Origin: a virus
UHGV virus genome: UHGV-1455077
Strand: one strand, 5' to 3'
DNA length: 64,000 bases
Positions 19,887-54,690 of the stretch are shown here, in pieces; position 1 is the first letter of the stretch; each line of letters begins with the position of its first letter. The notes under the pieces are model-generated. The model did no database searches. It was not told where the DNA came from and was given only the letters and a program-made list of their open reading frames with translations. A program made the translations under genes and the position numbers.

Positions 19887-19916
19887 TTCATTATTAACTT
19901 GTGGGATATTAATTTA

Positions 19917-21297: not shown

Positions 21298-21299
21298 TA

Positions 21300-22170: not shown

Positions 22171-22244
22171 TAACTTAATAAAATGTTCTTTCACAAATTT
22201 AATTATTTGACACTTTATTATAAATGTTATATAAATAATAATAT

Positions 22245-22330
22245 GGAAGGTAACTGGCTGGATGAAGACACCGACTTGAAATCGGCTGGGCGTAACTGCT
22301 TTGGGGGTTCGAGTCCCTCACCTTCCGCCA
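22245..22330 (+). tRNA. tRNA-Ser(TGA), type II, CCA encoded
   Basis: Acceptor GGAAGGT/ACCTTCC; anticodon arm CCGA-CTTGAAA-TCGG; long variable arm; T-arm GGGGTTCGAGTCCCTC. Confidence 0.7.
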
Positions 22331-22337
22331 TTTTTAT

Positions 22338-23031: not shown

Positions 23032-23086
23032 CTCAACTGGCAGAGCAACCGATTTGTAATCGGTAGGTTGGGGATTCGACTTCCTC
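23011..23086 (+). tRNA. tRNA-Thr(TGT), CCA encoded
   Basis: Acceptor GCCACGA/TCGTGGC; D-arm GCTCAACTGGCAGAGC; anticodon arm ACCGA-TTTGTAA-TCGGT. Confidence 0.75.
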
Positions 23087-23323
23087 TCGTGGCACCAGAT
23101 TTTAATAAGCTCCCCCGCTAAAGATACTTTGTGTATACAGCGAATATGGGTCAAAGTTTAAACTTTGCATTAAATTATAATAATTGTACAATAAAAAATT
23201 ATGTGAGCATTTTTTAATTTTGTATGGTAATAGTGACTTAAAGAATTACATAGATAACTGATTATTGTCTGCCAAAACAAGAAATTCTTTAAAATTATTC
23301 TTTACCATTTAAACTATTTTAGC

Positions 23324-23455
23324 AATAGTGAGAAAAGGATTTACATAGGTTTGTAACCCGTTGGTAATTGGTTCGAATCCAATCAAGTAATTGAAATATA
23401 TTATTTGTAGCTCATTGGTAGAGCAACGATAAAAAATAATCCTTTATTATGTTCT
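23324..23455 (+). ncRNA. permuted or split tRNA-like unit 2 (paralog of unit 1 at 13390-13520)
   Basis: 25-nt motif, then T-arm ATTGG-TTCGAAT-CCAAT, then 3' acceptor CAAGTAA. Ten nt later 5' acceptor TTATTTG pairs 7/7, followed by TA, D-arm GCTCATTGGTAGAGC and a conserved hairpin ATAAT...TTAT-GTTC. Confidence 0.4.
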
Positions 23456-23489
23456 TTGCTAACAAATATTTGGTGATAGTGATTAATTA

Positions 23490-23563
23490 GGTTTACATAG
23501 CTTAATGGTTAGAGCATTGATTTAACACATCAAACGTTACAGGTTCAACTCCTGTTGTAATTA
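23490..23563 (+). tRNA. tRNA-like, anticodon AAC, bulged 5' acceptor strand; preceded by the 25-nt motif
   Basis: GGTTTACA-TA-GCTT-AATGGTTA-GAGC...TTGAT-TTAACAC-ATCAA...ACAGG-TTCAACT-CCTGT-TGTAATT. Confidence 0.3.
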
Positions 23564-23643
23564 ATACCTAATTTACTATTCTTCACCAGTTCAATTTTGC
23601 ACCCAAGAACATATGTTCTTGGGTATTTTTTTATATAAGTTAT

Positions 23644-23672
23644 TGACAAATCATCTATAAATGAAGTATATT
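23644..23672 (+). promoter_or_regulatory. sigma70-like promoter TTGACA-17-TATATT
   Basis: Upstream of ORF 23699. Confidence 0.45.
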
Positions 23673-23698
23673 AATAAAAAACGTAAAAAGAGGTAAAA

Positions 23699-23998
23699 AT
23701 GAGCTATATTACAAATGAAGATGAACATCAACATATGACATTGTTTGTCTATTTTCCTTGTTCATTAGGTTATGAATGTGCAAAAATTATATTGCAACCT
23801 GGTGAGAAATTTTTTGCTAATGATGATGAAATTATTATGAAAATAGATAATAATAAAAATCCATTAAATAAAGATTTTGTAGGAATTAAAAACGGTGTTT
23901 TATATGCTGTTGGTCAAGAAATATATAAATTAGGAATGTTTAGAGAAAAACCTAAACAAATGACATTTGCCACGACAATGTTTAAATATACAGAATAA
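23699..23998 (+). CDS. hypothetical protein
   Basis: ORF, RBS aagaggtaaaaATG. Confidence 0.4.
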   Translation: MSYITNEDEHQHMTLFVYFPCSLGYECAKIILQPGEKFFANDDEIIMKIDNNKNPLNKDFVGIKNGVLYAVGQEIYKLGMFREKPKQMTFATTMFKYTE

Positions 23999-24022
23999 AT
24001 TAATTATAAGGATTAATAAATT

Positions 24023-24205
24023 ATGGATTATAATGAAGAATGGACTTTAGCTGATATTGATAATAATCACGATACACAGATGCTCAATGAATATTTTTCA
24101 CAAAAAAGTATTAAAGAAAGAATATTAGAAAATAAAGAAAAATATCGTGCAGAACAAATACTTAAAACTAAAATGATTAAAGAAAATTTAGGTCAAAAAA
24201 GATAA
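24023..24205 (+). CDS. hypothetical small protein
   Basis: ORF, RBS aaggattaataaattATG. Confidence 0.3.
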   Translation: MDYNEEWTLADIDNNHDTQMLNEYFSQKSIKERILENKEKYRAEQILKTKMIKENLGQKR

Positions 24206-24214
24206 AAAAAGTAG

Positions 24215-24243
24215 TTGACTAATAAAACTAAAAATGTTATAAA
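24215..24243 (+). promoter_or_regulatory. sigma70-like promoter TTGACT-17-TATAAA
   Basis: Upstream of the Ro60-like gene. Confidence 0.4.
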
Positions 24244-24277
24244 AACAATGTAAAATTAACTTATGGAGTGTTGAAAA

Positions 24278-25564
24278 ATGAAAACAAATAAAGCTGAAAA
24301 GAAACCAGCAATTTACACTAATGAAGGTGGTAAAGCATCTCATATTAGTGATTTAGAAGAATTGAAAAGAGCAACAATGTCTTGTTTGCTTTGGGAAGAT
24401 AACTTCTATGAAGATGGTGTATCAATTGCTGACAGAATTACCTCTTTAGTTAAAAATTGTATTGATAAAGGTCATTATGATGATGTAATTGATATTTTGA
24501 AAACTGTAAAATTTGATATGAGATTACGTCATTGTCCATTGTGGATGATTGTTGCAATTTATAAAGCAGGTAAAACTATTGATAAGAATGTTATTGCATC
24601 TATTCTTACAAGACCAGATGATATGGGAGAATTACTTTCTCTTTATCGTAAAGACCAAGCAAATGCACCTATTCCAAATGCTATGAAAAAAGCTATGGCT
24701 ATTGCCATTACTAAATTTGATGAATATCAATTGGCTAAATGGAATCGTGATGCTAATTACAAATTGGTTGATATTGTAAACATTTGTCATCCACAAGTAA
24801 CTGAAGCTATTGATAAGTTGGTTAAAGGAACTTTAGAAACTCCAAAAACTTGGGAAGTTCTTCTTTCTGCCGCTGGTTCTGATAAAGAAAAGAAAAAAGA
24901 AGCTTGGTTGGATTTGATTGAAACTAATAAATTACCTGATATGGCTCTTTTGAAGAATATTCGTGGTATGTTGGATGTAGGTGTTTCTAAAAACACATTG
25001 GTTGACCGTATTAATAATATTAAAAATGGTAGATTATTGCCAATTGATTATATTAGAGCGGCAAATACAAATCCATCATTGGAAAATGAAATTGAAAAGA
25101 AATTCTTAAATTGCTTTGAAAAACCTTCTTTGAATGGTAAGACTGCAATTTTAGTAGATGTGTCAGGTTCTATGGATGGAGAAAGATTAAATTATGCAAA
25201 TGCATTAGCGATGATTGGTCGTGAAATGTGTGAAAATGTTGATATTTACTCATTCTCTAATGAAGTCAAATTCATTCCAAATCGTAGAGGATTTGCTTTA
25301 GCAGAAGCTATTGATAAATCACAATACCATAATGGAACTTATATGTGGGATGCTATTAGTACAGTTGAAAAAGCTCATTACGATAGATTAATTGTTATTA
25401 CTGATGAGCAAACAATGGGTATGCCACACAACGCAGTTATTAAAAATGCATACATTATTAATGTTGCACCATATAATAAAGGTGTTGGTTACAATAATGG
25501 TTACAAACATATTAATGGTTTTTCAGATAAAGTATTTAATTATATTACTGAAATTGAAAAATAA
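24278..25564 (+). CDS. Ro60/Rsr-like protein: TROVE-like N-terminal region plus C-terminal von Willebrand A domain with MIDAS motif
   Basis: N-terminus NEGGKASHISDLEELKRATMSCLLWEDNFYEDG resembles the Ro60 TROVE start (N.dGGy...L.RfL.fGsEggtYY). vWA domain ILVDVSGSMDG with downstream T and D residues. Confidence 0.45.
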   Translation: MKTNKAEKKPAIYTNEGGKASHISDLEELKRATMSCLLWEDNFYEDGVSIADRITSLVKNCIDKGHYDDVIDILKTVKFDMRLRHCPLWMIVAIYKAGKTIDKNVIASILTRPDDMGELLSLYRKDQANAPIPNAMKKAMAIAITKFDEYQLAKWNRDANYKLVDIVNICHPQVTEAIDKLVKGTLETPKTWEVLLSAAGSDKEKKKEAWLDLIETNKLPDMALLKNIRGMLDVGVSKNTLVDRINNIKNGRLLPIDYIRAANTNPSLENEIEKKFLNCFEKPSLNGKTAILVDVSGSMDGERLNYANALAMIGREMCENVDIYSFSNEVKFIPNRRGFALAEAIDKSQYHNGTYMWDAISTVEKAHYDRLIVITDEQTMGMPHNAVIKNAYIINVAPYNKGVGYNNGYKHINGFSDKVFNYITEIEK

Positions 25565-25920
25565 TTAAATAAATATAATAAACAAACCCGATAGGCTTCT
25601 TATTTAATGAGTAGTATGGGTATATTGGTTAAAGTTAGACTTGCCCCCCTCTGCTACTCACATCAATAAATGCTTCTCGTTAGTCCACGAAGATTAACCG
25701 CCTAGATATTGATGAGTTTAAATACAGCACAATTATCTTTCTGGAATTGACCAGATAAGTTTATTAATATTCCTAGGTTCAATTAATAAATGGGTAGATT
25801 TATTTTTAACTTAATAAATTCCAATCAAAAAATTTAATTATAAGTATTAAAATATAAGTTGGAGTTTAGTGTTAATTAATTTAACAAGAAGGATTGATTT
25901 CTTTCTTGTTAAATTATTTT
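25565..25920 (+). ncRNA. 350-nt non-coding region downstream of the Ro60-like gene; candidate Y-RNA-like partner
   Basis: No ORF. Helix TGAGTAG...CTACTCA (25608/25648) and a terminal hairpin TTAACAAGAAggattgatttcTTTCTTGTTAA at 25881-25912 followed by a T-run. Confidence 0.25.
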
Positions 25921-25921
25921 T

Positions 25922-26158
25922 GTGAAAAAGGATATGAAAATGTTAAATTTGAAAAGTATTTTAAATGATAATATGAGAGTTAAATTTGATTTTTATCGTG
26001 ATGGTGCTTTATGGTATTCAACAATGAATGGGTTTCAATTTCCTGTTCCTGTGAGAACTTTAGCCGCAACATCAATATTAAAAGCTAATGATAAAGCAAC
26101 AGCATTCAGTTATTATATTAAAAAATACTATAATGAATTAAATAAAAATAAGGAATAA
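25922..26158 (+). CDS. hypothetical protein
   Basis: ORF. Confidence 0.35.
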   Translation: MKKDMKMLNLKSILNDNMRVKFDFYRDGALWYSTMNGFQFPVPVRTLAATSILKANDKATAFSYYIKKYYNELNKNKE

Positions 26159-26163
26159 TTTTT

Positions 26164-26583
26164 ATGAAAATGCAATTTTATGTTAGTACAAAAGAAATAA
26201 GTGAAAATAATTATTTGTATGGTGTAATGTCAATGATTAATGATGAACCATTTGATTTTATTGTTGGTCAAATGAATGGAGAAAAGGATGATATTATTAA
26301 TTTAATATCTAAAAATACATTGATAAAAAATAAAACAGTATTGAAAAATAATTATTATACTTTTAAATATGAGGATTTATATACAACAAAAAAAATGTTA
26401 TCAAAATTTCATACAGATGATTTTTATAAATCATATTCAAAAGAACAGCAAACTGATTTAGATGCTTTGCCAGCATTATTTCTTTCGGATACAACAAAAA
26501 TGATGCCATTAAATAAAAAGATGAATAATTATAAACAAATGCTTCAATATTATCAGATAACAAAAGAAAAAAATCGGAAATAA
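26164..26583 (+). CDS. hypothetical protein
   Basis: ORF. Confidence 0.4.
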   Translation: MKMQFYVSTKEISENNYLYGVMSMINDEPFDFIVGQMNGEKDDIINLISKNTLIKNKTVLKNNYYTFKYEDLYTTKKMLSKFHTDDFYKSYSKEQQTDLDALPALFLSDTTKMMPLNKKMNNYKQMLQYYQITKEKNRK

Positions 26584-26599
26584 AAAATCCGATTTTTTT
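26568..26599 (+). terminator. rho-independent terminator
   Basis: AAAATCGGAaataaaaaaTCCGATTTTTTT. Confidence 0.6.
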
Positions 26600-26600
26600 C

Positions 26601-26628
26601 TTGACAGTTAATTTTTTTATGTTATATT
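26601..26628 (+). promoter_or_regulatory. sigma70-like promoter plus conserved leader (related to the 9076/29070 cassette)
   Basis: TTGACAgttaatttttttatgTTATATTgaCCTTATC...AAAGGaatataacaATG. Confidence 0.45.
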
Positions 26629-26736
26629 GACCTTATCTTAAACAATTAAAGGAATATAACAATGATTTATCTTTTCTTTGCCTGCGTAATTTTTTTCATT
26701 ATTTTTAATGATTCTATTGGTTAATGGAGAAAAATT

Positions 26737-26976
26737 ATGAAATGGTACACACAACAAGATATGCCTTATGGAAAAGACCCAATTGTGATTAAAACAATTG
26801 ATAAACAAATATTTGTTGGTAATCATCAACATATCCATAATTCAAGTCTTAAGCATAAATTTAAGAATGAAGAACAATGGGTATTAACGACTAATCAAAA
26901 TAAAATTGAATGGTCAAAGGTTAAAGAATGGCATTATGTTCGTAAATTTATTGAAGTAATAGAAAGGAATTTTTAA
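26737..26976 (+). CDS. hypothetical protein
   Basis: ORF, RBS atggagaaaaattATG. Confidence 0.35.
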   Translation: MKWYTQQDMPYGKDPIVIKTIDKQIFVGNHQHIHNSSLKHKFKNEEQWVLTTNQNKIEWSKVKEWHYVRKFIEVIERNF

Positions 26977-26977
26977 A

Positions 26978-27247
26978 ATGTCAAATTATCTAATAATGGT
27001 CTATGGTTTTTCTCATTGGACTTGGATTTACGATTTTAAAAATAAAAAATGGGATAGATTTAATTGGTGTAATAAAAACGCTAATGAAAAATTTATTGAA
27101 GTTGTTAAAACTCATCATACTTTATTTTTTAATGCAACTGAAATGGAAGAAGCATATACAAAATTTGATGAAGATGAACTTGAATATATGGGTTTTGAAA
27201 ATCCTAATTGGAAAGATTTTGTAAAGGTTGTTAGTTATGTTTGTTAA
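26978..27247 (+). CDS. hypothetical protein
   Basis: ORF, RBS aaaggaatttttaaaATG. Confidence 0.35.
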   Translation: MSNYLIMVYGFSHWTWIYDFKNKKWDRFNWCNKNANEKFIEVVKTHHTLFFNATEMEEAYTKFDEDELEYMGFENPNWKDFVKVVSYVC

Positions 27248-27587
27248 AAAAATATTGATTTTTTGGATTACATTAATTACACTTGTTTTATGTATTTCTA
27301 TAAGTGAAGCTAATGCAAAATATGTTATTGCATCAAGTTATCAATATTCAACTGATGATTTTGCAACACTTATAGAAATTTCTGAATTAAAAGGTTGCCA
27401 ATTAAAAGGTAATATTTTTAATATTTCAAATAATGTAATTGGTATATTAATGGAATGTCCTCATAATTTTGATTATGATAAAATCTTTGAAAGATATATG
27501 GAAATTATGGATAATGAACATATGGAAATTATGGATAATGAACATATTAAAATTGAAATGCCACGAGATATAGGAAGATTTCTATAA
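27228..27587 (+). CDS. hypothetical secreted protein with a 24-bp tandem duplication (MEIMDNEH x2)
   Basis: Signal-peptide-like N-terminus; direct repeat at 27497-27544. Confidence 0.35.
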   Translation: MLVMFVKKILIFWITLITLVLCISISEANAKYVIASSYQYSTDDFATLIEISELKGCQLKGNIFNISNNVIGILMECPHNFDYDKIFERYMEIMDNEHMEIMDNEHIKIEMPRDIGRFL

Positions 27588-27600
27588 ATATTTTAACAAT

Positions 27601-27689
27601 GGTGGACGTAGCCAAGTTGGTCGAAGGCGTTAGATTGTGGCTCTAATACATTAGAAACATCGTGGGTTCGAATCCCACCGTTCACCCCA
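27601..27689 (+). tRNA. tRNA-His(GTG)-like with G-1 and C73, but an unusually long variable region
   Basis: G(-1)-GTGGACG...D-arm GCC-AAGTTGGTCGAA-GGC...anticodon arm TTAGA-TTGTGGC-TCTAA...GTGGG-TTCGAAT-CCCAC-CGTTCAC-C-CCA. Confidence 0.5.
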
Positions 27690-27692
27690 GAT

Positions 27693-27769
27693 GGCTCGTT
27701 AGGCGAATTGGCATAGCCGTCTGTCTTAGGTACAGATGTTTGGGGGTTCGAGTCCCTCACGAGCTACCA
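27693..27769 (+). tRNA. tRNA with anticodon TAG (Leu CUA codon) but a short type-I variable arm, CCA encoded
   Basis: Acceptor GGCTCGT/ACGAGCT; anticodon arm TCTGT-CTTAGGT-ACAGA; T-arm GGGGG-TTCGAGT-CCCTC. Confidence 0.55.
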
Positions 27770-44101: not shown

Positions 44102-44833
44102 ATGTCTACAATTTATGATATAGCTGGTACAACATCTGATGCTTTTAATCTTAATGGTAAAGTAACTTTCTTACAAGGTGATGAAGCTCCAGAAGTATAT
44201 CAAGGTATTAATGGAGATGTTTATTTTAGAACAAATGGTTTAATTTATTCTAAACAAAATAATACTTGGTTAAACTTATCATCTGCATCTTTACCTGATG
44301 CCGCTTCTGGTGCAGGAAAATTTATTATGTCAAATGGACAGAACTATGAATTTGCTGAAATACCTGTTCAAGATATTGCATCTAAAACAGAAGATAATGT
44401 ATGGTCAGGTAATAATACATTTACAGGTACAATAAATGGTATTTCAATGGGTTCATATTGGGGTGACTTAGCAGAATATTATGAATCTGATAATGAATAT
44501 CCTAAAGGAACTTTAGTTAAATTTGGTGGTGAAAAAGAAATTACTATTGCAGATGATACTGTTAATGCTGTTATTACATCTAATCCAGGTTTTATATTAA
44601 ATATGGGAATGAATAAAAAAACTCGTCAAGCAATTGCATTAGTTGGTCGTGTTCCTGTAAGAGTTATTGGTAAATGTAATAAATTTGATTATTTAACATT
44701 ATCTGATGTTCCTGGTATTGCAAGAGCATTGGAACAAAATGAATTTCCAATGAATGTTATTGCAAGAGCGTTAGAAAATAAAGATGAAATTAAAGAAGAT
44801 TTAGTTCTTTGTGTGGTCAAACTTGACTTATAA
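44102..44833 (+). CDS. tail-fibre-associated structural protein (hypothetical)
   Basis: ORF in the fibre operon. Confidence 0.4.
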   Translation: MSTIYDIAGTTSDAFNLNGKVTFLQGDEAPEVYQGINGDVYFRTNGLIYSKQNNTWLNLSSASLPDAASGAGKFIMSNGQNYEFAEIPVQDIASKTEDNVWSGNNTFTGTINGISMGSYWGDLAEYYESDNEYPKGTLVKFGGEKEITIADDTVNAVITSNPGFILNMGMNKKTRQAIALVGRVPVRVIGKCNKFDYLTLSDVPGIARALEQNEFPMNVIARALENKDEIKEDLVLCVVKLDL

Positions 44834-44858
44834 ATATGATTATTGAAAACTAATTAAA

Positions 44859-44892
44859 AATCTCTTATGATGAATACCATAAGAGATTTTTT
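44859..44892 (+). terminator. rho-independent terminator
   Basis: AATCTCTTATGatgaataccATAAGAGATTTTTT. Confidence 0.65.
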
Positions 44893-44912: not shown

Positions 44913-45635
44913 ATGGAGAAAATAATGGTAGAGTTTTCATACGATTTAATAAAAACAAATAAAGTAGAAAGAAATGATGAAAATGGTAAAAAAATTATTG
45001 AATTATTACCACAAACAGATATTACATCAGACGAATTATTAGAATTATTAAATTATGTTTATAATTTAGAAAATAATGAAGAATTTAAAGATACAATTCT
45101 TTTACAATTAAAAGGCTTAAACAAAAATCTTTTAATTGATGCCTTTAAATATTCATTATCAAGAGAAGATTTAAAAGACCCAATAATGATTTTAAATATT
45201 ATTAATCTTATTAAAATTTATAATAATTTAAATGATAATTTCTTTCAAGATGAAAACATTTATATTTCTTCAAAAGCTGATTTATTAGATATTAAGAAAA
45301 ATTTGAAACCTGAATTAAAAGAATTTGTAAAGAAAGTTAGTATTTACTTTTTATCAGTTATTAAATCATATAATAAAGTAACTTATACTTCACTTGATAC
45401 TTTTGAAATATTACCTAATATTTACAGAACTATCTTTTTATCATCAGACTTTTTAACATTATCAGGTATTTTTTCAGTTTCAGAACCATTTAATACAGAA
45501 GAATGTGTAACAATCAAAGATTCTTTTACTTATGTGTCGGCATTTTTAACAAAGAATTTAATTGGATTAAATTTTATGGATTCATTCTTCAAAAATTTAG
45601 AACAAAATAAACCTATTGAAAATAAGGAAGAATAA
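44913..45635 (+). CDS. hypothetical protein
   Basis: ORF. Confidence 0.35.
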   Translation: MEKIMVEFSYDLIKTNKVERNDENGKKIIELLPQTDITSDELLELLNYVYNLENNEEFKDTILLQLKGLNKNLLIDAFKYSLSREDLKDPIMILNIINLIKIYNNLNDNFFQDENIYISSKADLLDIKKNLKPELKEFVKKVSIYFLSVIKSYNKVTYTSLDTFEILPNIYRTIFLSSDFLTLSGIFSVSEPFNTEECVTIKDSFTYVSAFLTKNLIGLNFMDSFFKNLEQNKPIENKEE

Positions 45636-46282
45636 TGGCTGTACAAAAAGGTGAATTAATTGTATATCAGGATTTAATTGATTTTGTATTAACAAATATT
45701 AAATCACATTGTTCAAATATTGATGCATTTGCAAGTAATGTTCCTGTATCTTTAAGAAATGGGTCAAGTTATGTATTAGCATCTACACCTGGTGGTAATG
45801 GAACTGTTACAGCCACAGGTACAGTTAATGATGGTTTATTAGTTACCGTTTCAAGTGCAACTGTTGAACAACAATTAAATGATTTTTTAGTTGCTAGAGG
45901 TATTAAAAATAAACCTGATAGAGTTGTAGCATTTAAAGATATTATGAATTTTTACAATAATATTGCTTCATTTTTAGCTACAAAATTAATGTTTGTAAGT
46001 AATAGTTTTGGTAGTGGTACTTTTATTTTTTATAATAGTGCAAATACATCATTTCCTTCTGTTAATTTAGATATTACAAGTATTGATTTTACTAATCCAG
46101 AAGTTAAAACAAGTATAACTGATTTAATGAACGCAATTAATAATGTTTCAAATACACATTATGCCGCTACAACTATTGTTTATACTTGTTCATCAAGTAG
46201 TTCATCTAGTTGTTCTTCATCAAGTAGTTCATCTAGTTGTTCTTCATCAAGTTCAATGTTTATTGCATATATGGATATATAA
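45635..46282 (+). CDS. hypothetical protein with a Ser/Cys-repeat C-terminal tail (SSSSSSSCSSSSSSSSCSSSSS)
   Basis: Tail encoded by a 27-bp tandem repeat; paralog of the next gene. Confidence 0.45.
   Translation: MAVQKGELIVYQDLIDFVLTNIKSHCSNIDAFASNVPVSLRNGSSYVLASTPGGNGTVTATGTVNDGLLVTVSSATVEQQLNDFLVARGIKNKPDRVVAFKDIMNFYNNIASFLATKLMFVSNSFGSGTFIFYNSANTSFPSVNLDITSIDFTNPEVKTSITDLMNAINNVSNTHYAATTIVYTCSSSSSSSCSSSSSSSSCSSSSSMFIAYMDI
46187..46253 (+). repeat. 27-bp tandem direct repeat (about 2.4 copies) encoding the Ser/Cys-rich tail
   Basis: TCATCAAGTAGTTCATCTAGTTGTTCT repeated. Confidence 0.6.
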
Positions 46283-46833
46283 TGGCTATACAAAATATTA
46301 CATATAATGAAATTGTTGAAGCAGTTAAAAATTATGCAAAAAGTAACTGTATGAATATTGCTAATTTTGGAGCTATTCCAGCGGCATTTAAAGCAGGATA
46401 TTCTTTATCAGGAGATATTAGTTCATCGGGAAATAGATATACATCTAAATATGTTGTTACAATTACTAGAGCTGTTTCGCAAGTAGCTTCAAGTGTAGTT
46501 GATACAGATATGAATAATTTTTTAACAAGCATAAATGTTGCTAATAAATTAAATGACAATATTCCTGCAAGTGAATTTATTAATTTTATAAATGATATGG
46601 TAAGTTTTTGTTCAACAAAATTATGTTTTGCTACCAGTCAATATGATGGCAATAGATATTTAATTTATTATACAGCAAATACTTCTTATTCATCAGTAGT
46701 TTCTATTACAACAAATAATCAATTAAAACTTATTGAAGCAAGTGATGTTAATTCAATCTTAAATATGCTTTTTAATGTTGTCAAACAAAATATTAGAAAT
46801 GTACCTTGTACATATAATATTGCATTATCTTAA
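46282..46833 (+). CDS. paralog of 45635-46282 lacking the Ser/Cys tail. Start moved to MAIQNIT
   Basis: Shares NDFL..., F(C/L)ATKL..., YY(T/N)ANTS(Y/F) blocks with the upstream gene; TAATG start/stop overlap. Confidence 0.45.
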   Translation: MAIQNITYNEIVEAVKNYAKSNCMNIANFGAIPAAFKAGYSLSGDISSSGNRYTSKYVVTITRAVSQVASSVVDTDMNNFLTSINVANKLNDNIPASEFINFINDMVSFCSTKLCFATSQYDGNRYLIYYTANTSYSSVVSITTNNQLKLIEASDVNSILNMLFNVVKQNIRNVPCTYNIALS

Positions 46834-46880
46834 TTTTTTTAATATAATTATTTCCATAAACTATTTTAAGGATATTTTTT

Positions 46881-47747
46881 ATGAATTGTAAGCCTGTATA
46901 CGAATTTTTATTATGGGATAATTGTAATAATAATTGTAAATTCTGTTGGCAACGAGAAAATCCAAGAATTTTTAATAAACAACAACGAGAAAAAATATTA
47001 AATAATGTAATTAAATTTATTGAAAGTAGTAAATTTAAAAAAGGCAGTCATATTCTTATCGTTGGTGGAGAAATATTTGATAAACCTTCTGATTTTGAAA
47101 TGCTCGATGCTTTCTTTTGTAAAATTCTTGAATTTATGATTGCTGGAGTAATTGATTTATTATATATTAATACAAATCTTATCTATAAAGATTTAACTGG
47201 TATTGTCCGCTTATTACAAAGAATAAAAATATTAAATTTATTTGATAAATTAAGATTTACAACTTCTTATGATACAGAAGGAAGATTCAAATCATTAGAA
47301 GATAAAGATTTAATGTTATCTAATTTAAAACTTCTTACAGGTATATATGATAAACTACAAACAGTTACAAATGTAATTTTAACTAAACCAACTTGCCAAG
47401 CAATTATTAATAAAGAATTTAGTATTAAAGACTTTATGAATAATTTTAATTGCTGGGTTAATCTTATTCCGTATATTGTATTAAATAATGATTTGACGGC
47501 TAACAGAGAAGAAATATTTAATGCTTTGCAATTTGTTGATGAAGAAAATAATGGATATTTACAAAAATACATTACTAATTTGGATTTAGCTCAAGATAAA
47601 TTATTATATATGTTTAAAGATGGTAGATTTCAATTTTGTAGTTGTGAAAATGCAGATTGTGGACATTCAATCAATTTTAAAAAATATTCTAATACTAATG
47701 AATGTTTTATATGTGATTTAAAGGAATTATTTAATGGAAAACTTTAA
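46881..47747 (+). CDS. radical SAM enzyme paralog 1
   Basis: N-terminal WDNCNNNCKFC (Cx3Cx2C), GGEIF motif, SYDTEGRF, C-terminal CGHS...CFICD. Confidence 0.65.
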   Translation: MNCKPVYEFLLWDNCNNNCKFCWQRENPRIFNKQQREKILNNVIKFIESSKFKKGSHILIVGGEIFDKPSDFEMLDAFFCKILEFMIAGVIDLLYINTNLIYKDLTGIVRLLQRIKILNLFDKLRFTTSYDTEGRFKSLEDKDLMLSNLKLLTGIYDKLQTVTNVILTKPTCQAIINKEFSIKDFMNNFNCWVNLIPYIVLNNDLTANREEIFNALQFVDEENNGYLQKYITNLDLAQDKLLYMFKDGRFQFCSCENADCGHSINFKKYSNTNECFICDLKELFNGKL

Positions 47748-48654
47748 GAATAGAAATCGTTTTATTCAATATGAATTATGGAAAGATTGTAGTTTAGGTT
47801 GCAAATTTTGTTTTAATAAAAAACAAAAAGATGCCGATAAAATAGAATCATTGTTATTTGTTATTGATAAATTAGATAATCCAGAAGTTTTAGATTATAA
47901 TGAAGTTGGTTTTATTGGCGGAGAATTTTTTAATGGTGAAATAGCTAAACCAAAAGTAAAACAATTATTTTATAATTTGTTTAAAAAACTTTCAACAATG
48001 CATTTTGAAAAAATATATATAACAGGTGCATTAATGTATGATATGAATACTTATTTAATTCCTTTTTTAGATTATTTAAAAGAAATTAAATTATTAGATA
48101 AAACTTTATTCTGTACATCCTATGATTTAAAATATCGTTTTTATACAAAAGAAAGAGAAGATTTATGGAAAAATAATATGTTATTACTTCATAAATTATA
48201 TCCTGAATTAAAATTACATACAGAAACTGTTATTACACAATATTTTATAGATGCTGTATTAAATGATGAATTTAGTATAACTGATTTTTGTAACACTTAT
48301 CATACAAGATTAGATTATATTGAACCTACATCAGGATTATATTATAAAGATAAGCAAGAATGTATAAAAGATATTCCAGATTTTTTTCCTACAAAAGATA
48401 GTTTTATTGATTTTATGATGAAAACAGGTGTAGAATCAAATGAAATTGATTTAAAAACATTTTTATCTATGGAAATACGTTCTAATAAATTATATTATTT
48501 AGATGAAGGCATTAGATGTGTATCAGCCGATAGACGAGAAAATGACGGAATGATAGTTCCAAAAAATAATTCAGTTAAGTATGAAATAGGTTTTTCAGAT
48601 TCAGATGATAATATGCCAGAATTAGTTAGAGATTTTTGTTTAACAGTAGGATAA
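47734..48654 (+). CDS. radical SAM enzyme paralog 2
   Basis: WKDCSLGCKFCFN (Cx3Cx2C), GGEFF, SYDLKYRF. Confidence 0.65.
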   Translation: MENFKNRNRFIQYELWKDCSLGCKFCFNKKQKDADKIESLLFVIDKLDNPEVLDYNEVGFIGGEFFNGEIAKPKVKQLFYNLFKKLSTMHFEKIYITGALMYDMNTYLIPFLDYLKEIKLLDKTLFCTSYDLKYRFYTKEREDLWKNNMLLLHKLYPELKLHTETVITQYFIDAVLNDEFSITDFCNTYHTRLDYIEPTSGLYYKDKQECIKDIPDFFPTKDSFIDFMMKTGVESNEIDLKTFLSMEIRSNKLYYLDEGIRCVSADRRENDGMIVPKNNSVKYEIGFSDSDDNMPELVRDFCLTVG

Positions 48655-48658
48655 CATT

Positions 48659-49648
48659 ATGGATTTAATAGATTGGTGGATAAACTTAGAACCTTTGTCA
48701 GTAGAAGAAAAAAAATTATTAACTTCTTCAAGAAATGATGAATTTATAGATAAAATTTTTACAGTATCATTGACATCAGAATTTATTAAAAGATTACCAA
48801 ATTGTAATTTATCTAATGAATATCAAGTACGTGTAGATAATTGTGCAACGAATTTAATTCAAAGTTTATTTAATACATATATTGATGATGATACTCTTGT
48901 TATATATACCGAAAATGAGCATTATAAAATTAAAGGAATTCTTGATGCATTTAAAAATAAATTGGTATTAAGTTATAATGATATACTTAAATTAAATATG
49001 TCTAAAATAGCTTCTCAATTATCTAAATTCAAAAAAGTTTTTGTTTATATTATTGGAACTCAATTATCAAGTGGAGAAATAACTTCTCAATATTTTTTCA
49101 TAAAATTAAAAGAATTATTAAATACTTATAAATGTCAATATAAATTAGTTTTAGATGATGTTCACGGAATGTTTTTTGTCCCTCGTGATTATAGCATATT
49201 TGATTATATTATTGGAACAACACACGCCCTCATTCCATCATATCATATGGGGATTTTAATTGGTAAAGAAAATATGGATAAATTTGGAAGAATACAATAT
49301 CAATGGGAAGATGAATATCTTAGAGCATTAGATGTATTATTAAAAAGAAAAGAAAAAATTTATCAATTTAAATATATAATGGAACAAAGTTTAGCTAAAA
49401 TTATTTCTGAAGGTAAATGTCATTTATTAACTCAAACTGCCCCACATTTGTTTACTTTAAAAACCGACCAATTACAATATAATCAAGAATTTAAAGATGA
49501 ATTGGATAAGTATGGAATAAGGTTAGAAGGGGTTAATGAAGAATTAAAATATATTTTATGTAGAGTATCACAATTTATTATTAATCCTAATATATTAAAA
49601 GAAGGTATTGAAACATTAAATATTGTATTAAACTATATGTATGAATAA
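48659..49648 (+). CDS. hypothetical protein; possible degenerate fold-type-I PLP enzyme-like protein (VLDDVHGMF motif), no obvious catalytic Lys
   Basis: YKLVLDDVHGMFFVP...DYIIGTTHALIPSYHMGIL resembles the (D/E)EAHG...SK(A/T)LG pattern of alpha-oxoamine-synthase-like enzymes, with His in place of Lys. Confidence 0.3.
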   Translation: MDLIDWWINLEPLSVEEKKLLTSSRNDEFIDKIFTVSLTSEFIKRLPNCNLSNEYQVRVDNCATNLIQSLFNTYIDDDTLVIYTENEHYKIKGILDAFKNKLVLSYNDILKLNMSKIASQLSKFKKVFVYIIGTQLSSGEITSQYFFIKLKELLNTYKCQYKLVLDDVHGMFFVPRDYSIFDYIIGTTHALIPSYHMGILIGKENMDKFGRIQYQWEDEYLRALDVLLKRKEKIYQFKYIMEQSLAKIISEGKCHLLTQTAPHLFTLKTDQLQYNQEFKDELDKYGIRLEGVNEELKYILCRVSQFIINPNILKEGIETLNIVLNYMYE

Positions 49649-49659
49649 GGAAAAAAATT

Positions 49660-50586
49660 ATGGGTAATATGGTTCAATTTGGAGTTTGGTCTAATTGTTG
49701 TAATGCGTGTGATTTTTGTTTACGTGAAGAAAGAATTCCATATAGCAAAGAAAAACAATTATATTATTTAGATATGATTAAAAAGAATATTGAATATATT
49801 GATTGGAAAGATAAATTTTCATATGGAATTTCATTACTTGGCGGAGAATTATATTACATTACTGATAAAGATTTACAAAAATCATTTCTTGAATTAATTG
49901 ATGTTATTATTGAAAAAGTATTAAAAGTTTCTACTAATCCAGAATGTAAGTATTCAACTGTTACAAATGGATTATACGACCCTGCATTTTTATATCAAGT
50001 TATTGATAAAATTGTTAATGAAGTAGGATTAAAAGCAATTGATGTTAATTTTTCATATGATTTAAAATACAGATTTAAATCAGAAGAAGACCGTTTAAAA
50101 TGTTTAAAAAATATTAATGATTTTCATTCAAGATATGATTATAATGTTGGTGTGCAAATGATTATGACACAATATGTTATTAATGAATGGAAAGCTGGAC
50201 GATTTGATGTCAATAAATTTATGGAAGAAGAAATTCCAGGAAATTATTTAACGTTTTTATATCCACATCCTGTAAGAACAGGTAAAAAATTAGATGATTT
50301 TAATTTTAACAGAAATGATTTTTTAGATTTTATTCAATATTTAAAAGATGAATGTTATAATGTTTATTTGTCATTTTTACATTCAACAAAAAATTCAGGA
50401 ACTTTTAAATATACAGGCTTACAAAATCGTATTCATCCATCAGTTAATGCCCAGCCTGTATTATCAGATGGTAAAGAAATTATAAATCAAGAATGTGGTC
50501 ATTCTATCATATATAAATGTTATAGCGATTGTGATGATTGTGTCTTATGCGATTTAAAAAATTTTGATGAGGAAGTATATCTATGA
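49660..50586 (+). CDS. radical SAM enzyme paralog 3
   Basis: WSNCCNACDFC, GGELY, SYDLKYRF, C-terminal CGHSIIYKCYSDCDDCVLCD. Confidence 0.65.
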   Translation: MGNMVQFGVWSNCCNACDFCLREERIPYSKEKQLYYLDMIKKNIEYIDWKDKFSYGISLLGGELYYITDKDLQKSFLELIDVIIEKVLKVSTNPECKYSTVTNGLYDPAFLYQVIDKIVNEVGLKAIDVNFSYDLKYRFKSEEDRLKCLKNINDFHSRYDYNVGVQMIMTQYVINEWKAGRFDVNKFMEEEIPGNYLTFLYPHPVRTGKKLDDFNFNRNDFLDFIQYLKDECYNVYLSFLHSTKNSGTFKYTGLQNRIHPSVNAQPVLSDGKEIINQECGHSIIYKCYSDCDDCVLCDLKNFDEEVYL

Positions 50587-51569
50587 AAAAACAAATGCAA
50601 TTTGAATTATGGGACGAATGTAATTCTAAATGTACTTTTTGTCATTTATGTAATAAAAATGGAAATACTCCAAATAATATAAAATTAGAAATGCTTCAAG
50701 ATACATTAGATAAAATTTCTGATTTATCAATTTATTCTGAATATAATACAATTGGTTTTATTGGTGGGGAATTTTTTCAAGGACAACTTAATACGCCTGA
50801 AATTAAATCTAAATTTATGGAATTGATGGATAAGGCTTGTTGGTTATTAAATAATGATTATATAGATAATGTTTGGATTAATGCTACATTAACAATTGGA
50901 AATCAAGATGATTTATATGCCGTTTTAAAGCGTTTTGAGGGGCATAAAGGAAATTTATGGATACTTACCTCATTTGATACATTAGGACGCTTCCACACCC
51001 AAAAAATGAAAGATAATTGGGATTATCATATGAAGAATATTCATAATTTATATCCAGAAATTAAATTTAATATTACTACTATTTTATCAGGTGATTTTAT
51101 TGAACGCTATTTAAATGATGAAATAAATTTTGAGCAATTTATGCAAGAATATAATGCTTCATTATTTTTTAAAGTTCCTGCATTACAAAAAGAATATTAT
51201 CATACTAATAAAGAAATGAATGATAAAATTGGTTATTTTTTTCCTACACGGGATTTATTTTTAGAATTTTTATCAAAATTTAGACAAACAGAACATCCTG
51301 ATTTATGGAATAAATTATTTAATATTGAATATCGTGCCGATACATTATATTGTAAAGAAAATGGCGATGATATAGAAATAACTCGTTCTAAAGATAATAA
51401 TTATATGGAAACAATTATAGATACAACCATTAATGAACAAATGGAAAGAGTAAAAGAAAAGCAAATGGATTATATTATGGATTGCGGGCATTTAAGTACA
51501 TATAATTCTTATATAGATGAAGATGGTTGTGCATTATGTGATAAGTTAATGTTTGAAGAACTAATATAA
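50583..51569 (+). CDS. radical SAM enzyme paralog 4
   Basis: WDECNSKCTFC, GGEFFQGQLNTPEIKSKFMEL, SFDTLGRFH, CGHL...CALCD. Confidence 0.65.
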   Translation: MKKQMQFELWDECNSKCTFCHLCNKNGNTPNNIKLEMLQDTLDKISDLSIYSEYNTIGFIGGEFFQGQLNTPEIKSKFMELMDKACWLLNNDYIDNVWINATLTIGNQDDLYAVLKRFEGHKGNLWILTSFDTLGRFHTQKMKDNWDYHMKNIHNLYPEIKFNITTILSGDFIERYLNDEINFEQFMQEYNASLFFKVPALQKEYYHTNKEMNDKIGYFFPTRDLFLEFLSKFRQTEHPDLWNKLFNIEYRADTLYCKENGDDIEITRSKDNNYMETIIDTTINEQMERVKEKQMDYIMDCGHLSTYNSYIDEDGCALCDKLMFEELI

Positions 51570-51589
51570 ATATTTCAAAAGGTAAAATA

Positions 51590-52540
51590 ATGAGTAAACA
51601 GATGCAATTTGAGTTATGGCAAGAATGCAATTCTAAATGTAAATTTTGTTATTTAGGAAAAGAAAATTGTCATACACCAGATGAATTAAAATTACAATCT
51701 TTACAAAATGCAATTGATAAAATTTCTGATTTATCAATTTATTCTGAATATGATACTTTATCATATCTGGGTGGAGAATTTTTTCAAGGACAACTTAATA
51801 CGCCCGAAATTAAATCTAAATTTATGGAATTGATGGAAAAAACCGCTTGGTTATATGATAATGATTATATTAAACACGTATGGATTTATGCTACATTAAC
51901 TATCGGCGACCAACAAGATTTATATGATACTTTGAAATTATTTAATAAAAAAGATGAATTATGGATTTTAACATCATATGATACAATTGGTAGATTTCAT
52001 ACTAAAAAGATGTTTGATAATTGGGATTATCATATGAAGAATATTCATAATTTATATCCAGAAATTAAATTTAACATTACTACTATTTTATCAGAAGACT
52101 GTATAGACAAGTATTTAAATGATGAATTGTCATTTAAAGATATGATGGAAGAATATCATTGTTCATTCTTTTTTAAGCAATGCGGCAATGGTTCTTATAC
52201 AAAAGAAGAAATGAATACAATTATTCCTCACTTCTTTCCACCTAGAGATAAATTTATTGACTTCTTACAAAAATTCCGCAATGAAGAAAATGATGAAATG
52301 TGGAATAAATTATTTAATATTCATTATAGAGCAGATAGTTTGTATAGGAATTTCAATGATAAAAATCATCAAATGGAATTAAATGTTCGTCATAAAGATT
52401 CATTAAATGAAATTGAAAATGATAATAAAGATGAAATGGAAACAAATGAATGTGGTCATTTAAAAGTTTATGCGGCATATATTGATTGTGATGAGTGTGT
52501 ACTTTGTGATAAATTAATGATAGAAGAATTTTTAAAATAA
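51590..52540 (+). CDS. radical SAM enzyme paralog 5
   Basis: WQECNSKCKFC, GGEFFQGQLNTPEIKSKFMEL, SYDTIGRFH, CGHL...CVLCD. About 77-bp and about 65-bp tracts are near-identical to paralog 4. Confidence 0.65.
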   Translation: MSKQMQFELWQECNSKCKFCYLGKENCHTPDELKLQSLQNAIDKISDLSIYSEYDTLSYLGGEFFQGQLNTPEIKSKFMELMEKTAWLYDNDYIKHVWIYATLTIGDQQDLYDTLKLFNKKDELWILTSYDTIGRFHTKKMFDNWDYHMKNIHNLYPEIKFNITTILSEDCIDKYLNDELSFKDMMEEYHCSFFFKQCGNGSYTKEEMNTIIPHFFPPRDKFIDFLQKFRNEENDEMWNKLFNIHYRADSLYRNFNDKNHQMELNVRHKDSLNEIENDNKDEMETNECGHLKVYAAYIDCDECVLCDKLMIEEFLK

Positions 52541-52550
52541 GGAAATATAA

Positions 52551-53027
52551 ATGATTACAATTGAAAATAATGATAATGATATTATGATTGAAAATGATGT
52601 CAATCAACCATATGTAAAAAAAATTATATTAAATAAAAGTATTACTATTAAAGCACAAACTAATACTTCTTTTGATATTAATACTGTCTTTAAATTTACT
52701 GATAATAATGATTTTGCATTTGTTGAAGGTGTTATTGTTGATGCAAAAGATTATTATGTAGTTGGAGAAGTATATAGTTTAGACCGCCAAAATAATAAAT
52801 TATCTTTATTAATTGGTAATAATTCAAATGTATCTTATACAATTCCAGCAGGAACTCATATTGCTAATATCTATACATTAGCAAAAAATTTTAGTGGTAA
52901 TGTTATATATAATAATGGAAATATTGCAGTAATAGATTATAATAACTATTATAAAGTTAGTGATACAACTTTAACTGAATTTCCAGATGGAAAAAAAGCT
53001 ATAACAATTAATTTAGATAAAGAATAA
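52551..53027 (+). CDS. hypothetical protein within the rSAM array
   Basis: ORF. Confidence 0.35.
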   Translation: MITIENNDNDIMIENDVNQPYVKKIILNKSITIKAQTNTSFDINTVFKFTDNNDFAFVEGVIVDAKDYYVVGEVYSLDRQNNKLSLLIGNNSNVSYTIPAGTHIANIYTLAKNFSGNVIYNNGNIAVIDYNNYYKVSDTTLTEFPDGKKAITINLDKE

Positions 53028-53983
53028 TGAGTTTACAAATACAATATGAATTATGGAGAGAGTGTAATTGTAAATGTACATATTGCACTCTTGGAATAGA
53101 TAATTGCTTAACAAGTAATGAATTAAAACTTCAATCAATGCAAACAGCAATTGATGAAATGAAACAATTTAAATCAAATGAACATCAAACAGTTGGTTTT
53201 ATTGGTGGAGAGTTTTTTCAAGGACAACTTAATACACCTGAAATTAAATCTAAATTTATGGAATTAATTACAGAAGCAAATAATTTATTAAATAATAATA
53301 TTGTAAAAGATTTATGGCTTAATGCATCATTATTAATCGGTAATCAAGATGATTTATATGAAGCAATAAATTTAATTAATGATAAAACAAAACTATGGGT
53401 TTTAACATCATATGATACAATTGGTAGATTTCACACATCTAAAATGTTAGATACTTGGAAATATCATATGAATAAACTTCATAATGATTATCCAGAAGTT
53501 AAATTAAACACTACAAGTATTTTAACGGGTGATTTTATTGAAAAATATTTAAATGATGAATTTGATATTGAAGATTTTAAAGCTAAATATCATACCAATT
53601 TATTTTTAAAAACAACTGTTAAACCTGGTCATTTAAGCCATTTAACAAAACAAGAAATTAATGATAAGATAGGTAATTTTTTTCCTACACAAGAAAAATT
53701 TCAAGAATTTTTATTTACATATTATTCACGTGAAGGAGAAGATGAATATCATAAATTGTTTAGTAATGATTTAAGAGCCGATGAGGTTCGTAAAAATTTC
53801 AATGATGAAAATAAAAGAAATATTAAATTTATAAGAGATAAAAACACTCTTGAAGAAACAATTGATTGTATTGATGAACATATTGATAATTTATCTTGTG
53901 GTCATTCATCTATCTATCAATCTTATGTTGATTCAGATGATTGTTCAATATGTGATAAACAACAAATTTTGGATATAATTTAA
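53027..53983 (+). CDS. radical SAM enzyme paralog 6
   Basis: WRECNCKCTYC, GGEFFQGQLNTPEIKSKFMEL, SYDTIGRFH, CGHS...CSICD. Confidence 0.65.
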   Translation: MSLQIQYELWRECNCKCTYCTLGIDNCLTSNELKLQSMQTAIDEMKQFKSNEHQTVGFIGGEFFQGQLNTPEIKSKFMELITEANNLLNNNIVKDLWLNASLLIGNQDDLYEAINLINDKTKLWVLTSYDTIGRFHTSKMLDTWKYHMNKLHNDYPEVKLNTTSILTGDFIEKYLNDEFDIEDFKAKYHTNLFLKTTVKPGHLSHLTKQEINDKIGNFFPTQEKFQEFLFTYYSREGEDEYHKLFSNDLRADEVRKNFNDENKRNIKFIRDKNTLEETIDCIDEHIDNLSCGHSSIYQSYVDSDDCSICDKQQILDII

Positions 53984-54618
53984 TGCCTGATTTTGAAAAA
54001 AATAATTATTATAAAATTATAGATATAAAAACAAATGCTATTATTTGTGCAGGGAAGATTGCATTTATTAAACAAACTAAAGATATGCCTATTCTAATTA
54101 GTTTTGATAATAAATTCTTCTTCAATTCCGAAGGAACTTCAAAATATAAAGTTGTTAAATCTGATACAGAGGTTGATGTTCCTTTATTAAGAAATATTAT
54201 ATTAGAATCTTATAAAATATGCTTATATGAAGATTATTTTAATTATCCTGATTATGATATATTTAGAGAATATGATATTAATGAATTAGATGAGCCAGTT
54301 ATTAAATTAGTTACTATATTAAATAAATTTGATGATATTGAAACCACAGGAAGTTGTTGCGGACACGGTGATAATTATTTATGGGTTGATATTATGTTTC
54401 ATTCGTTATCATCTATTAATTTAATTATTGATTTATTAAATGATGATAAATGGAATAATAAATTTATTTTAAGTAATTATTATACTAATAAAAATAAATC
54501 TAATTATTCTGTTATGCTACATTTACGTTCATTTACTAAAGGTGAAGAAGCATATAAAGATGCTAGTTTATTAGCAGATGATTTACAAGAAATTTATGAA
54601 TTACTTTATGGATTATAA
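53983..54618 (+). CDS. hypothetical protein with TTGSCCGHGD motif
   Basis: ORF; ATGA start/stop overlap with rSAM6. Confidence 0.35.
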   Translation: MPDFEKNNYYKIIDIKTNAIICAGKIAFIKQTKDMPILISFDNKFFFNSEGTSKYKVVKSDTEVDVPLLRNIILESYKICLYEDYFNYPDYDIFREYDINELDEPVIKLVTILNKFDDIETTGSCCGHGDNYLWVDIMFHSLSSINLIIDLLNDDKWNNKFILSNYYTNKNKSNYSVMLHLRSFTKGEEAYKDASLLADDLQEIYELLYGL

Positions 54619-54662: not shown

Positions 54663-54690
54663 AAAAAGAGAGCTTTTTAAAGCTCTCTTT
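54663..54690. terminator. bidirectional rho-independent terminator
   Basis: AAAGAGAGCTTTttaaAGCTCTCTTT between convergent genes. Confidence 0.65.

Follow-up and report, generated by a model that had tools for sequence, protein, structure and literature searches.

Why should a phage carry six radical S-adenosylmethionine (rSAM) genes within a few kilobases? The question is raised by UHGV virus genome UHGV-1455077, of which we analysed a stretch of 64,000 nucleotides (the window), where an earlier reading of the letters alone (the original prediction) had described a six-fold array of rSAM paralogues beginning at position 46881. Upon checking the open reading frames (ORFs), we confirmed all six, on the plus strand and 288-328 aa long, and found the quoted CxxxCxxC strings and the GGE(I/F/L)(F/Y) motif to be correct in every one of them. 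The proteins can be aligned end to end, sharing an invariant W, C, C, C, GGE and S-x-D-x3-R-F block, and as the 64-kb window holds no further convincing CxxxCxxC radical-SAM ORF, the array is not due to chance. It is, however, not a row of six equivalent copies: we found four old orthogroups, one of which expanded locally, and a functional unit that begins upstream of 46881, at 44913, with three genes that we call A, B and C. We think it somewhat probable that this unit is a phage-encoded cassette resembling those for RiPPs (peptides made by the ribosome and altered after translation), in which four kinds of rSAM enzyme modify the C-terminal tail of B, probably on a tail-fibre-associated protein.

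As judged from sequence motifs and modelling, the six proteins are genuine members of the radical-SAM fold. We found both the GGE motif and the partial TIM-barrel fold of the Radical SAM superfamily, and structure prediction for one of the enzymes, R4b, returned the radical-SAM fold with high confidence. The Pfam model PF04055 matched weakly, with R1 at 30.2 bits, above the gathering score of 29.5, and the other five at 14.5-24.4 bits, below it. The structural neighbours, with their tabulated values, were anSME (the anaerobic sulfatase-maturating enzyme, PDB 4k36; 15.1 over 254 aligned residues), BlsE (14.6), SkfB (14.3), viperin (13.8), ChlB (13.4), MoaA (13.4), SuiB (13.3) and the sactipeptide maturase 5wgg (12.6), which places the family structurally nearest to the SPASM/twitch/viperin/MoaA neighbourhood. 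It belongs to no named family: the proteins fall short of the curated thresholds for viperin, NrdG, MoaA, QueE and SPASM, and we found neither names nor a paper for them, in line with the original prediction, which had left them unassigned.

Comparing the window with 26 IMG/VR loci that contain the family motif and with a 238-kb JGI phage (L005), we found the rSAM enzymes to form four orthogroups, R1-R4, each conserved across phages; these comparisons indicate that the orthogroups are ancient and that R4 was expanded in the lineage of the window. R1 (46881-47747; 288 aa; PHROG 1802) has its cluster cysteines at Cys15/19/22, an extra conserved Cys172 and a C-terminal C260-x-H262...C275-x-x-C278 site, and its orthologues are 35-61% identical in most of the diverged loci. 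R2 (47734-48654; 306 aa; cluster Cys19/23/26) lacks a C-terminal Cys/His site, and R3 (49660-50586; 308 aa; cluster Cys13/17/20), with a fourth Cys in that site (C279-x-H281, C287, C294-x-x-C297), is the most conserved orthogroup, with identities of up to 72% (71% to L005). R4 is present three times, as the modelled R4b (51590-52540; 316 aa; cluster Cys13/17/20; C288-G-H290...C303-x-x-C306) and as two copies seen only in the window's lineage, R4a (50583-51569; 328 aa; 61% identical to R4b and absent from L009) and R4c (53027-53983; 318 aa; 48% identical to R4b). The cluster cysteines are kept in 96-100% of each orthogroup, and among 141 full-length, diverse family representatives the CxxxCxxC motif is retained in 140 and the C-terminal CGH...CxxC in 67. 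Two further motifs of the original prediction held in part. Its (S/T)(S/F)YD(T/L)xGRF(H/K) block is exact in R1, R4b and R4c and differs in the others, reading SYDLKYRF(Y/K) in R2 and R3 and TSFDTLGRFH in R4a, and its C-terminal CGH...CxxCD motif occurs in five of the six proteins, missing from R2 and from all but one of 32 R2 orthologues. This motif had been suggested as possibly binding an auxiliary cluster; in the R4b model a beta-hairpin leads up to its CxxC, which opens the last helix, and the model is compatible with a reduced twitch-type Fe-S site as well as with a zinc knuckle.

The protein to which these enzymes are tied is B (45635-46282, plus strand; 215 aa), the proposed substrate, which combines an alpha/beta N-domain of unrecognised fold with a disordered C-terminal tail. 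The tail, our candidate for the modified region (46187-46279, plus strand), consists of CSSSSSSSCSSSSSSSSCSSSSS (46187-46255) and the octapeptide MFIAYMDI (46256-46279), the protein thus ending in TCSSSSSSSCSSSSSSSSCSSSSS-MFIAYMDI with ~23 Ser/Cys ahead of the octapeptide. All B orthologues end in the same manner, a tract of 20-31 Ser interspersed with Cys leading into a C terminus that is near-invariant, x-F-I-A-Y-(M/F)-x-(I/L). AlphaFold2 predicted the tail to be disordered (predicted local distance difference test, pLDDT, below 40), as expected of a maturase substrate. Within the tail, conservation is stricter for the terminal xFIAYMx(I/L) than for the make-up of the Ser tract, in which the Cys positions are not conserved; the tail contains no His, and in one phage (L030), which keeps all of R1-R4, it consists of 31 Ser and no Cys. 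At the DNA level, the poly-Ser tract (46189-46252) uses mixed TCN/AGY codons and is built from a 27-nt unit in 2.4 copies. Near-identical strains differ by exactly one such unit, giving a B of 215 or 206 aa (the B genes of L001 and L002; P0272, P0289), which suggests length variation by repeat slippage. Of all features of B, it is the tail that is best conserved: in L018, L020 and L027 the N-domain has diverged beyond the reach of BLAST, and tailed ORFs with divergent N-domains are present there nonetheless. The one in L027 (4398-6317, plus strand) is a 640-aa protein in which N-terminal repeats are joined to a domain of the B type and a poly-Ser/Cys tail with IFIAYFNI at its end; the repeats resemble BspA-type leucine-rich repeats (LRRs) by visual reading only, with no Pfam model matching them. 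Directly after B lies its tail-less paralogue C (46282-46833, plus strand; 183 aa), whose ATG overlaps the stop codon of B (TAATG), and in L016, L019, L021 and L031 the C-like copy bears a tail as well. Searches of B against the PDB returned only low-complexity poly-Ser matches, with E down to 1e-3.

We found the linkage between tail and enzymes to hold in both directions. A tailed ORF was present within 10 kb (of the fetched flanks) in 23 of the 25 contigs that bear family rSAM genes; the two exceptions are a contig cut short by its own end and a solitary R4-like gene (L033). Conversely, when viral contigs were searched with the DNA pattern for S-S-x-F-I-A-Y-M-x-(I/L)-stop, 11 matches were obtained, ten of them genuine tails, nine of which lie on contigs with the rSAM module and one in a stored stretch too short to judge; the eleventh match was a chance one. 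A, B, C and R1-R4, often together with a further gene, ORF3, recur in ~25 diverged large-phage contigs down to 23-50% identity, with the gene order shuffled or duplicated in some phages; L012, for instance, has two complete sets. The L005 module, which keeps A, B, C, R1-R4 and ORF7, adjoins genes for SbcCD and DHFR instead of fibre genes. Hence, homologous arrays do occur in related jumbo phages, a point that the original prediction had proposed to check, and maturase genes are found linked to a conserved, disordered target sequence, as in a RiPP-like cassette. The tail-fibre setting of the window was likewise borne out by its flanking genes, which match tail protein and tail fiber protein among the PHROGs and Collar, Gp53-like_C, Peptidase_G2, CBM_5_12 and F5_F8_type_C among the precomputed Pfam annotations. 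The recurrent placement among fibre genes and the L027 fusion of LRR-like repeats, B domain and tail suggest, by their context, that B belongs to the host-recognition apparatus.

We favour the maturation of B's tail by the four enzymes because the linkage survives extensive divergence and a changed genomic context, because conservation within B is highest in the tail, because the nearest structures are mostly those of protein- or peptide-modifying rSAM enzymes, and because there are precedents in the HXS system and in multi-rSAM RiPP pathways, which are known. It is further supported by a methylthiotransferase fused to an R2-type domain near a tailed B and by the additional SPASM-like rSAM genes of L005. 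Each of the four orthogroups would bind a [4Fe-4S] cluster through its CxxxCxxC motif and cleave SAM to a 5'-deoxyadenosyl radical, which would abstract hydrogen atoms from the disordered tail; the retention of four different enzymes, each conserved in its own right, leads us to expect several kinds of modification or iterative ones. Among the possible chemistries, we would place C-alpha epimerisation first, C-beta oxidation of Ser/Cys to formylglycine second, ether or thioether cross-links in the Ser tract third, and a cross-link or decarboxylation at the conserved Phe/Tyr octapeptide fourth. Formylglycine formation is attractive because Ser and Cys are interchangeable in the tail and the fold is anSME-like, and repeated action on a homopolymer would be explained equally well by epimerisation of the proteusin kind. 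An obligatory Cys-to-carbon thioether chemistry of the sacti- or ranthipeptide type is unlikely, given that L030 combines its Cys-free tail with a full set of R1-R4. A, C and ORF3, which lacks a catalytic Lys, would serve as recognition, chaperone or auxiliary partners, and the octapeptide may be a docking site or itself the target of cross-linking or decarboxylation. The matured B would then probably be a component or an accessory of the tail-fibre apparatus. The genes, with their motifs, fold, conservation, linkage and purifying selection, are what we observed; the catalytic activity, the role of B as the substrate, all chemical details and the association with the virion are what we infer from this pattern.

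Several points weigh against such a pathway. The assignment of B as the substrate derives from gene linkage alone, and the R4-like gene of L033 has no tailed ORF within 10 kb upstream or within the ~7 kb downstream that remain before the contig end. No RiPP recognition element, SPASM domain or peptide-maturase family was detected at significance in the window enzymes. Their best sequence match among solved structures, obtained by searching the PDB with a profile of the six paralogues, is viperin (E 2e-4), which modifies nucleotides. The poly-Ser tract could be merely a flexible linker, as the Cys positions are not conserved and the tail of L030 has none, and the virion association of B is contextual, its fold being unrecognised.

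The known systems nearest to the cassette differ from it in ways that locate it further. The enzyme anSME/AtsB (4k36) is 13% identical to the window enzyme and is of a single type, with a 7-Cys SPASM domain that holds two auxiliary clusters, whereas the window has four types with three to four Cys and one His at the C terminus; its substrate motif, (C/S)-x-P-x-R, is absent from B, so that the cassette falls outside that family. Compared with the SPASM/twitch maturases of RiPPs (SkfB 6efn, SuiB 5v1q, ChlB 9gm3, PqqE 6c8v, 5wgg and EpeE/YydG 8ai1), the window enzymes reach no family threshold, show no SPASM domain, with no match of any window protein to TIGR04085, and have no detectable RiPP recognition element or PqqD domain, because the rSAM cluster begins as early as residue 13-19. 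Nor does B look like a usual RiPP precursor, being ~200 aa long, with a C-terminal target, no recognisable leader and dispensable Cys. In proteusin pathways (polytheonamide, PoyB/C/D), several rSAM enzymes iterate on a long low-complexity core behind a large, protein-like leader; the window differs in having neither an NHLP/Nif11 leader nor a B12-binding domain, in showing no detectable homology, and in a core that is poly-Ser, C-terminal and followed by a conserved octapeptide. RimO, which modifies ribosomal protein S12, and MiaB come close in that three family members are fused to a UPF0004 and rSAM module, one of them near a tailed B, but no fusion of this kind is encoded in the window, nor is a UPF0004 or TRAM domain. 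Finally, in the HXS antiphage system, the rSAM pair HxsB/HxsC and the small HxsD mature a full-size effector, HxsA, with His-x-Ser repeats (PMC13128918). The likeness lies in several rSAM enzymes and a small partner acting on a full-size protein with a Ser-containing repeat; HXS, however, is bacterial and defensive and has two rSAM enzymes and a His in its repeat, whereas the window cassette is phage-encoded, lies among fibre genes, has four orthogroups and acts, if at all, on a pure Ser/Cys tail without His. R1 scores 18.7 bits (E 6e-4) against the HxsC model TIGR03977, far below its cutoff of 267.9, and the two are hence not orthologues.

The alternative that survives best, though we consider it unlikely, is that the rSAM enzymes act on the fibre proteins encoded nearby, or use the C terminus of B as a scaffold on which they assemble a small molecule or cofactor, with the poly-Ser tract a mere linker that presents the F-I-A-Y-M octapeptide. 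Peptides are used as scaffolds in this manner in the pathways to pyrroloquinoline quinone (PQQ), mycofactocin and pearlins. The stricter conservation of the octapeptide relative to the Ser tract speaks for this alternative, as do the pyridoxal or pyridoxamine phosphate (PLP/PMP)-type pocket of ORF3, which would suit small-molecule chemistry, the position of the module among fibre genes in many lineages, often directly downstream of a fibre-like protein akin to that encoded from 44102 in the window, and the 640-aa protein of L027, which carries its LRR-like repeats (again by visual reading) together with the B domain and tail. Yet, the module of L005 lies away from fibre genes and still keeps A, B and C; the length of the Ser tract (20-31) and its purity are themselves conserved, with mixed codons; and in the block we recognised no protease, ligase or export gene such as usually serves to release a cofactor or RiPP.

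Distinctly less probable is that the enzymes, resembling viperin, MoaA or QueE, make modified nucleotides, hypermodified DNA or modified tRNA for anti-defence or takeover, with A, B and C as unrelated neighbours. The sole support for this idea is a weak N-terminal similarity. Like viperin and pVip, the enzymes are ~300 aa long, with an N-terminal cluster and no SPASM domain, and viperin_w_prok is their best NCBIfam match (17.8-24.6 bits against a cutoff of 180, aligning residues 3-75), with weak N-terminal pVip matches of 18-24 bits in PADLOC. The match, however, covers mainly the cluster-binding 60 residues, at 18-25 bits, so that the viperin resemblance noted in the original prediction stands for the cluster-binding N-terminus and, marginally, for the middle region (E 2e-4) but does not extend to membership; viperin is not known to have a C-terminal Cys3His site. 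Among the other NCBIfam models, NrdG, MoaA and TYW1 gave E above 0.02 and 11-14 bits against cutoffs of 126-326 bits, and QueE matched no window protein. Viperin acts on a nucleoside triphosphate, whereas the gene context of the window points to a protein substrate, and a nucleotide-modifying role would leave the linkage unexplained. Of the candidate roles originally listed, protein modification is therefore far likelier than modification of nucleotides, DNA or tRNA, because the poly-Ser-tailed B is the conserved partner.

Compared with their L009 orthologues (76-94% identical), the cassette genes gave ratios of non-synonymous to synonymous substitution rates (dN/dS) of 0.08-0.34, with 0.08-0.26 for the rSAM genes (R1 0.18, R3 0.08) and 0.34 for ORF3, indicating functional genes under purifying selection and not pseudogenes. 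It is barely credible that the ORFs are decaying or non-catalytic duplicates (structural pseudo-enzymes) whose motifs are relics: five of the six do fall below the Pfam gathering score and ORF3 has lost its catalytic Lys, but all are intact, with these low ratios, the cluster Cys kept in each orthogroup, 278 family clusters (50% identity) at E <= 1e-30 and a confidently predicted fold.

Returning to the maturation of B, a bolder version may be entertained tentatively, although we hold it to be rather doubtful: the four-enzyme pathway might, in large phages of anaerobic gut and rumen communities, turn the poly-Ser tail of a tail-fibre-associated virion protein into a new, post-translationally built polymer, for instance poly-D/L-serine, poly-formylglycine or a rod laddered by ethers or thioethers with the cross-linked aromatic octapeptide as its cap, for use in host adhesion or fibre assembly. 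If so, B would be the first viral structural protein known to be matured by radical-SAM enzymes, through a new rSAM chemistry on serine homopolymers. In bacteria, rSAM maturation of ribosomal peptides and of a few proteins is known. A virus cassette that links a poly-Ser-tailed protein to four conserved rSAM orthogroups, with six to nine genes in each genome, is, by contrast, new to description, as is the combination of enzyme family, substrate type and viral setting; we found no description of a poly-serine-directed or phage-encoded multi-rSAM maturation system in the literature searched. If the maturation of B holds true, it would provide a new rSAM family with a simple, genetically defined substrate, possibly a new chemistry on serine homopolymers, and a new route by which phages, under anaerobic conditions, assemble or adjust the apparatus for host recognition. 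A working hypothesis is also gained for at least five orphan families (A, B/C, ORF3, ORF7 and the R family).

The cassette as a whole spans 44913-54618 and comprises 12 co-directional genes in the order A-B-C-R1-R2-ORF3-R3-R4a-R4b-ORF7-R4c-ORF9, with gaps of -14 to +47 nt and AGGA-type motifs resembling ribosome-binding sites ahead of most of them, an arrangement best explained by a single co-transcribed unit. Its 5' boundary is likely marked by a hairpin followed by a TATAAT-like box (44856..44891, plus strand), found by a consensus scan in the stretch that separates the stop codon (44833) of the fibre gene upstream from the first codon of A. Its 3' boundary is likely formed by a GC-containing hairpin with A/T runs on either side (54665..54690, strand not assigned) in the convergent gap after ORF9, a likely bidirectional terminator. 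A scan for sigma-70 promoters gave fewer matches than shuffled sequence and is uninformative in DNA of 25% GC (the window has ~26%). The fibre-like protein directly upstream (44102-44833, plus strand) matches PHROG 6427 and, weakly, Peptidase_G2 over its C-terminal 130 residues, the latter being an autoproteolytic intramolecular-chaperone domain; its orthologues lie directly upstream of the module in the diverged lineages L010, L015, L028 and L029.

The remaining cassette proteins are less readily placed. A (44913-45635, plus strand; 240 aa) is an orphan with a conserved C-terminal region of ~140 aa, which gives the impression from its sequence, not from computation, of being helical and has no catalytic-looking invariant residues; its orthologues adjoin the rSAM genes in ~20 loci, its family has 171 unnamed members, and it has no PDB, Pfam or PHROG match. 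It is possibly a chaperone or substrate-recognition partner. The original prediction had also listed three interleaved non-rSAM ORFs of 329, 158 and 211 aa, and these are present as described, except that the last, although it carries the CCGHG motif, has four Cys and is not Cys-rich. The first, ORF3 (48659-49648, plus strand; 329 aa), is found in about half of the modules and had been called PLP-fold-like, which holds at the level of the fold: Aminotran_5 (PF00266) matches two of 13 orthologues (best E 1.2e-5), though not the window protein itself, and an hhalign comparison with a provisional sequence of IscS was collinear but weak (E 0.18), pairing EH with TEHK, LDDVQ with VDATQ and GT-x-H-A with SGHK. 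ORF3 is thus likely related to class-V aminotransferases and cysteine desulfurases. In the alignment of the 13 orthologues, the PLP-pocket motifs EH, LDDVQ and T-x-H are kept, whereas an invariant Ala takes the place of the Schiff-base Lys (T187-x-H189-A190) and a conserved or catalytic Cys is absent, which indicates that ORF3 is not a canonical PLP enzyme. We rejected a role as a cysteine desulfurase for Fe-S supply, because it has neither the PLP Lys nor the catalytic Cys. ORF7 (52551-53027, plus strand; 158 aa; orthologues in L005, L009, L029 and L030; no family match) and ORF9 (53983-54618, plus strand; 211 aa; TTGSCCGHG motif; only in close relatives and L010) are sporadic accessory genes. 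ORF9 has 30 residues weakly like the TYW3/Taw3 N-terminal motif (18 bits, below cutoffs) and a weak PHROG glycosyltransferase match. Sequence and profile searches of ORF3, ORF9 and A against the PDB gave nothing below E 0.1.

The family is widespread and nameless. Its profile retrieved 965 proteins from a 90%-identity database, many on contigs of 285-293 kb, and none of these had an informative name (5.8 billion proteins searched), one bearing the generic JGI label 'MoaA/NifB/PqqE/SkfB family radical SAM enzyme'; a 50%-identity library yielded 863 representatives. Proteins identical to those of the window occur on 60-67 metagenomic contigs (R4c on 67, up to 293 kb), which, together with the 278 clusters at E <= 1e-30, marks the cassette as common. 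The IMG/VR uncultivated genome 3300045988_152892 is 100% identical to the window, and identical genes occur in ENA assemblies whose record or sample names bear human-gut cohort labels. In GenBank, the window proteins appear only as third-party annotation of a metagenome-assembled genome (MAG), Caudoviricetes sp. (DAR13142.1, 'Radical SAM superfamily'; DAR13140.1, 'hypothetical protein'). The GenBank phage collection gave no match by DNA or tblastn, and hence offers no cultured relative to lean on. A search of genome contigs with R3 found two MAG contigs, one of them a 249-kb probable binned phage, and thus allows no host assignment.

Within the family, fusions to further domains were seen. A MiaB/RimO-like methylthiotransferase (UPF0004 and rSAM) is fused to an R2-type domain in P0194, P0199 and P0219, and in L034 such a fusion (684-2696) is directly preceded by a tailed B gene and an ORF of 121 aa. 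Overall, the N-terminal extensions of fused members contain one AAA ATPase, three MiaB-like modules and two second Radical_SAM domains, the rest having no Pfam domain. The R4-type proteins P0129, P0124, P0144, P0158, P0168 and P0171 have extensions of 180-300 aa, one with an AAA ATPase and the others without a Pfam domain. In L005, five further rSAM genes lie beside the module (1-4323, minus strand, and 11412-12302, plus strand), four with SPASM-like Cys-rich C-termini and the fifth cut by the end of the locus, with weak matches to peptide maturases; with a 296-aa protein that has a degenerate cluster motif, this phage has about ten rSAM-type genes.

Elsewhere in the window, no Pfam domains for Fe-S assembly, SAM synthetase or flavodoxin are on record in the first ~35 kb, where most genes have no Pfam match. 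A tRNA array (11958-27769, plus strand) contains 21 genes by ARAGORN and 23 by Rfam. Those for tRNA-Ser(GCU) and tRNA-Ser(UGA) are among them, and these tRNAs decode codons that the poly-Ser tract uses (AGY, UCA and related UCN). The tRNA-rich region also encodes a 428-aa protein with a TROVE (Ro60-like) domain (24278-25564, plus strand), for which the Rfam gathering-level scan that found the 23 tRNAs returned no Y-RNA-like partner. Within the array, a small ORF (12664-13008, plus strand) carries an HNH-like CxxxCxxCHxxxH motif (CIMVCANCHREIH) and may encode a homing endonuclease, and an ORF of 387-402 aa (19872-21080, plus strand) matches AAA and, weakly, nSTAND3/NACHT-type ATPases.

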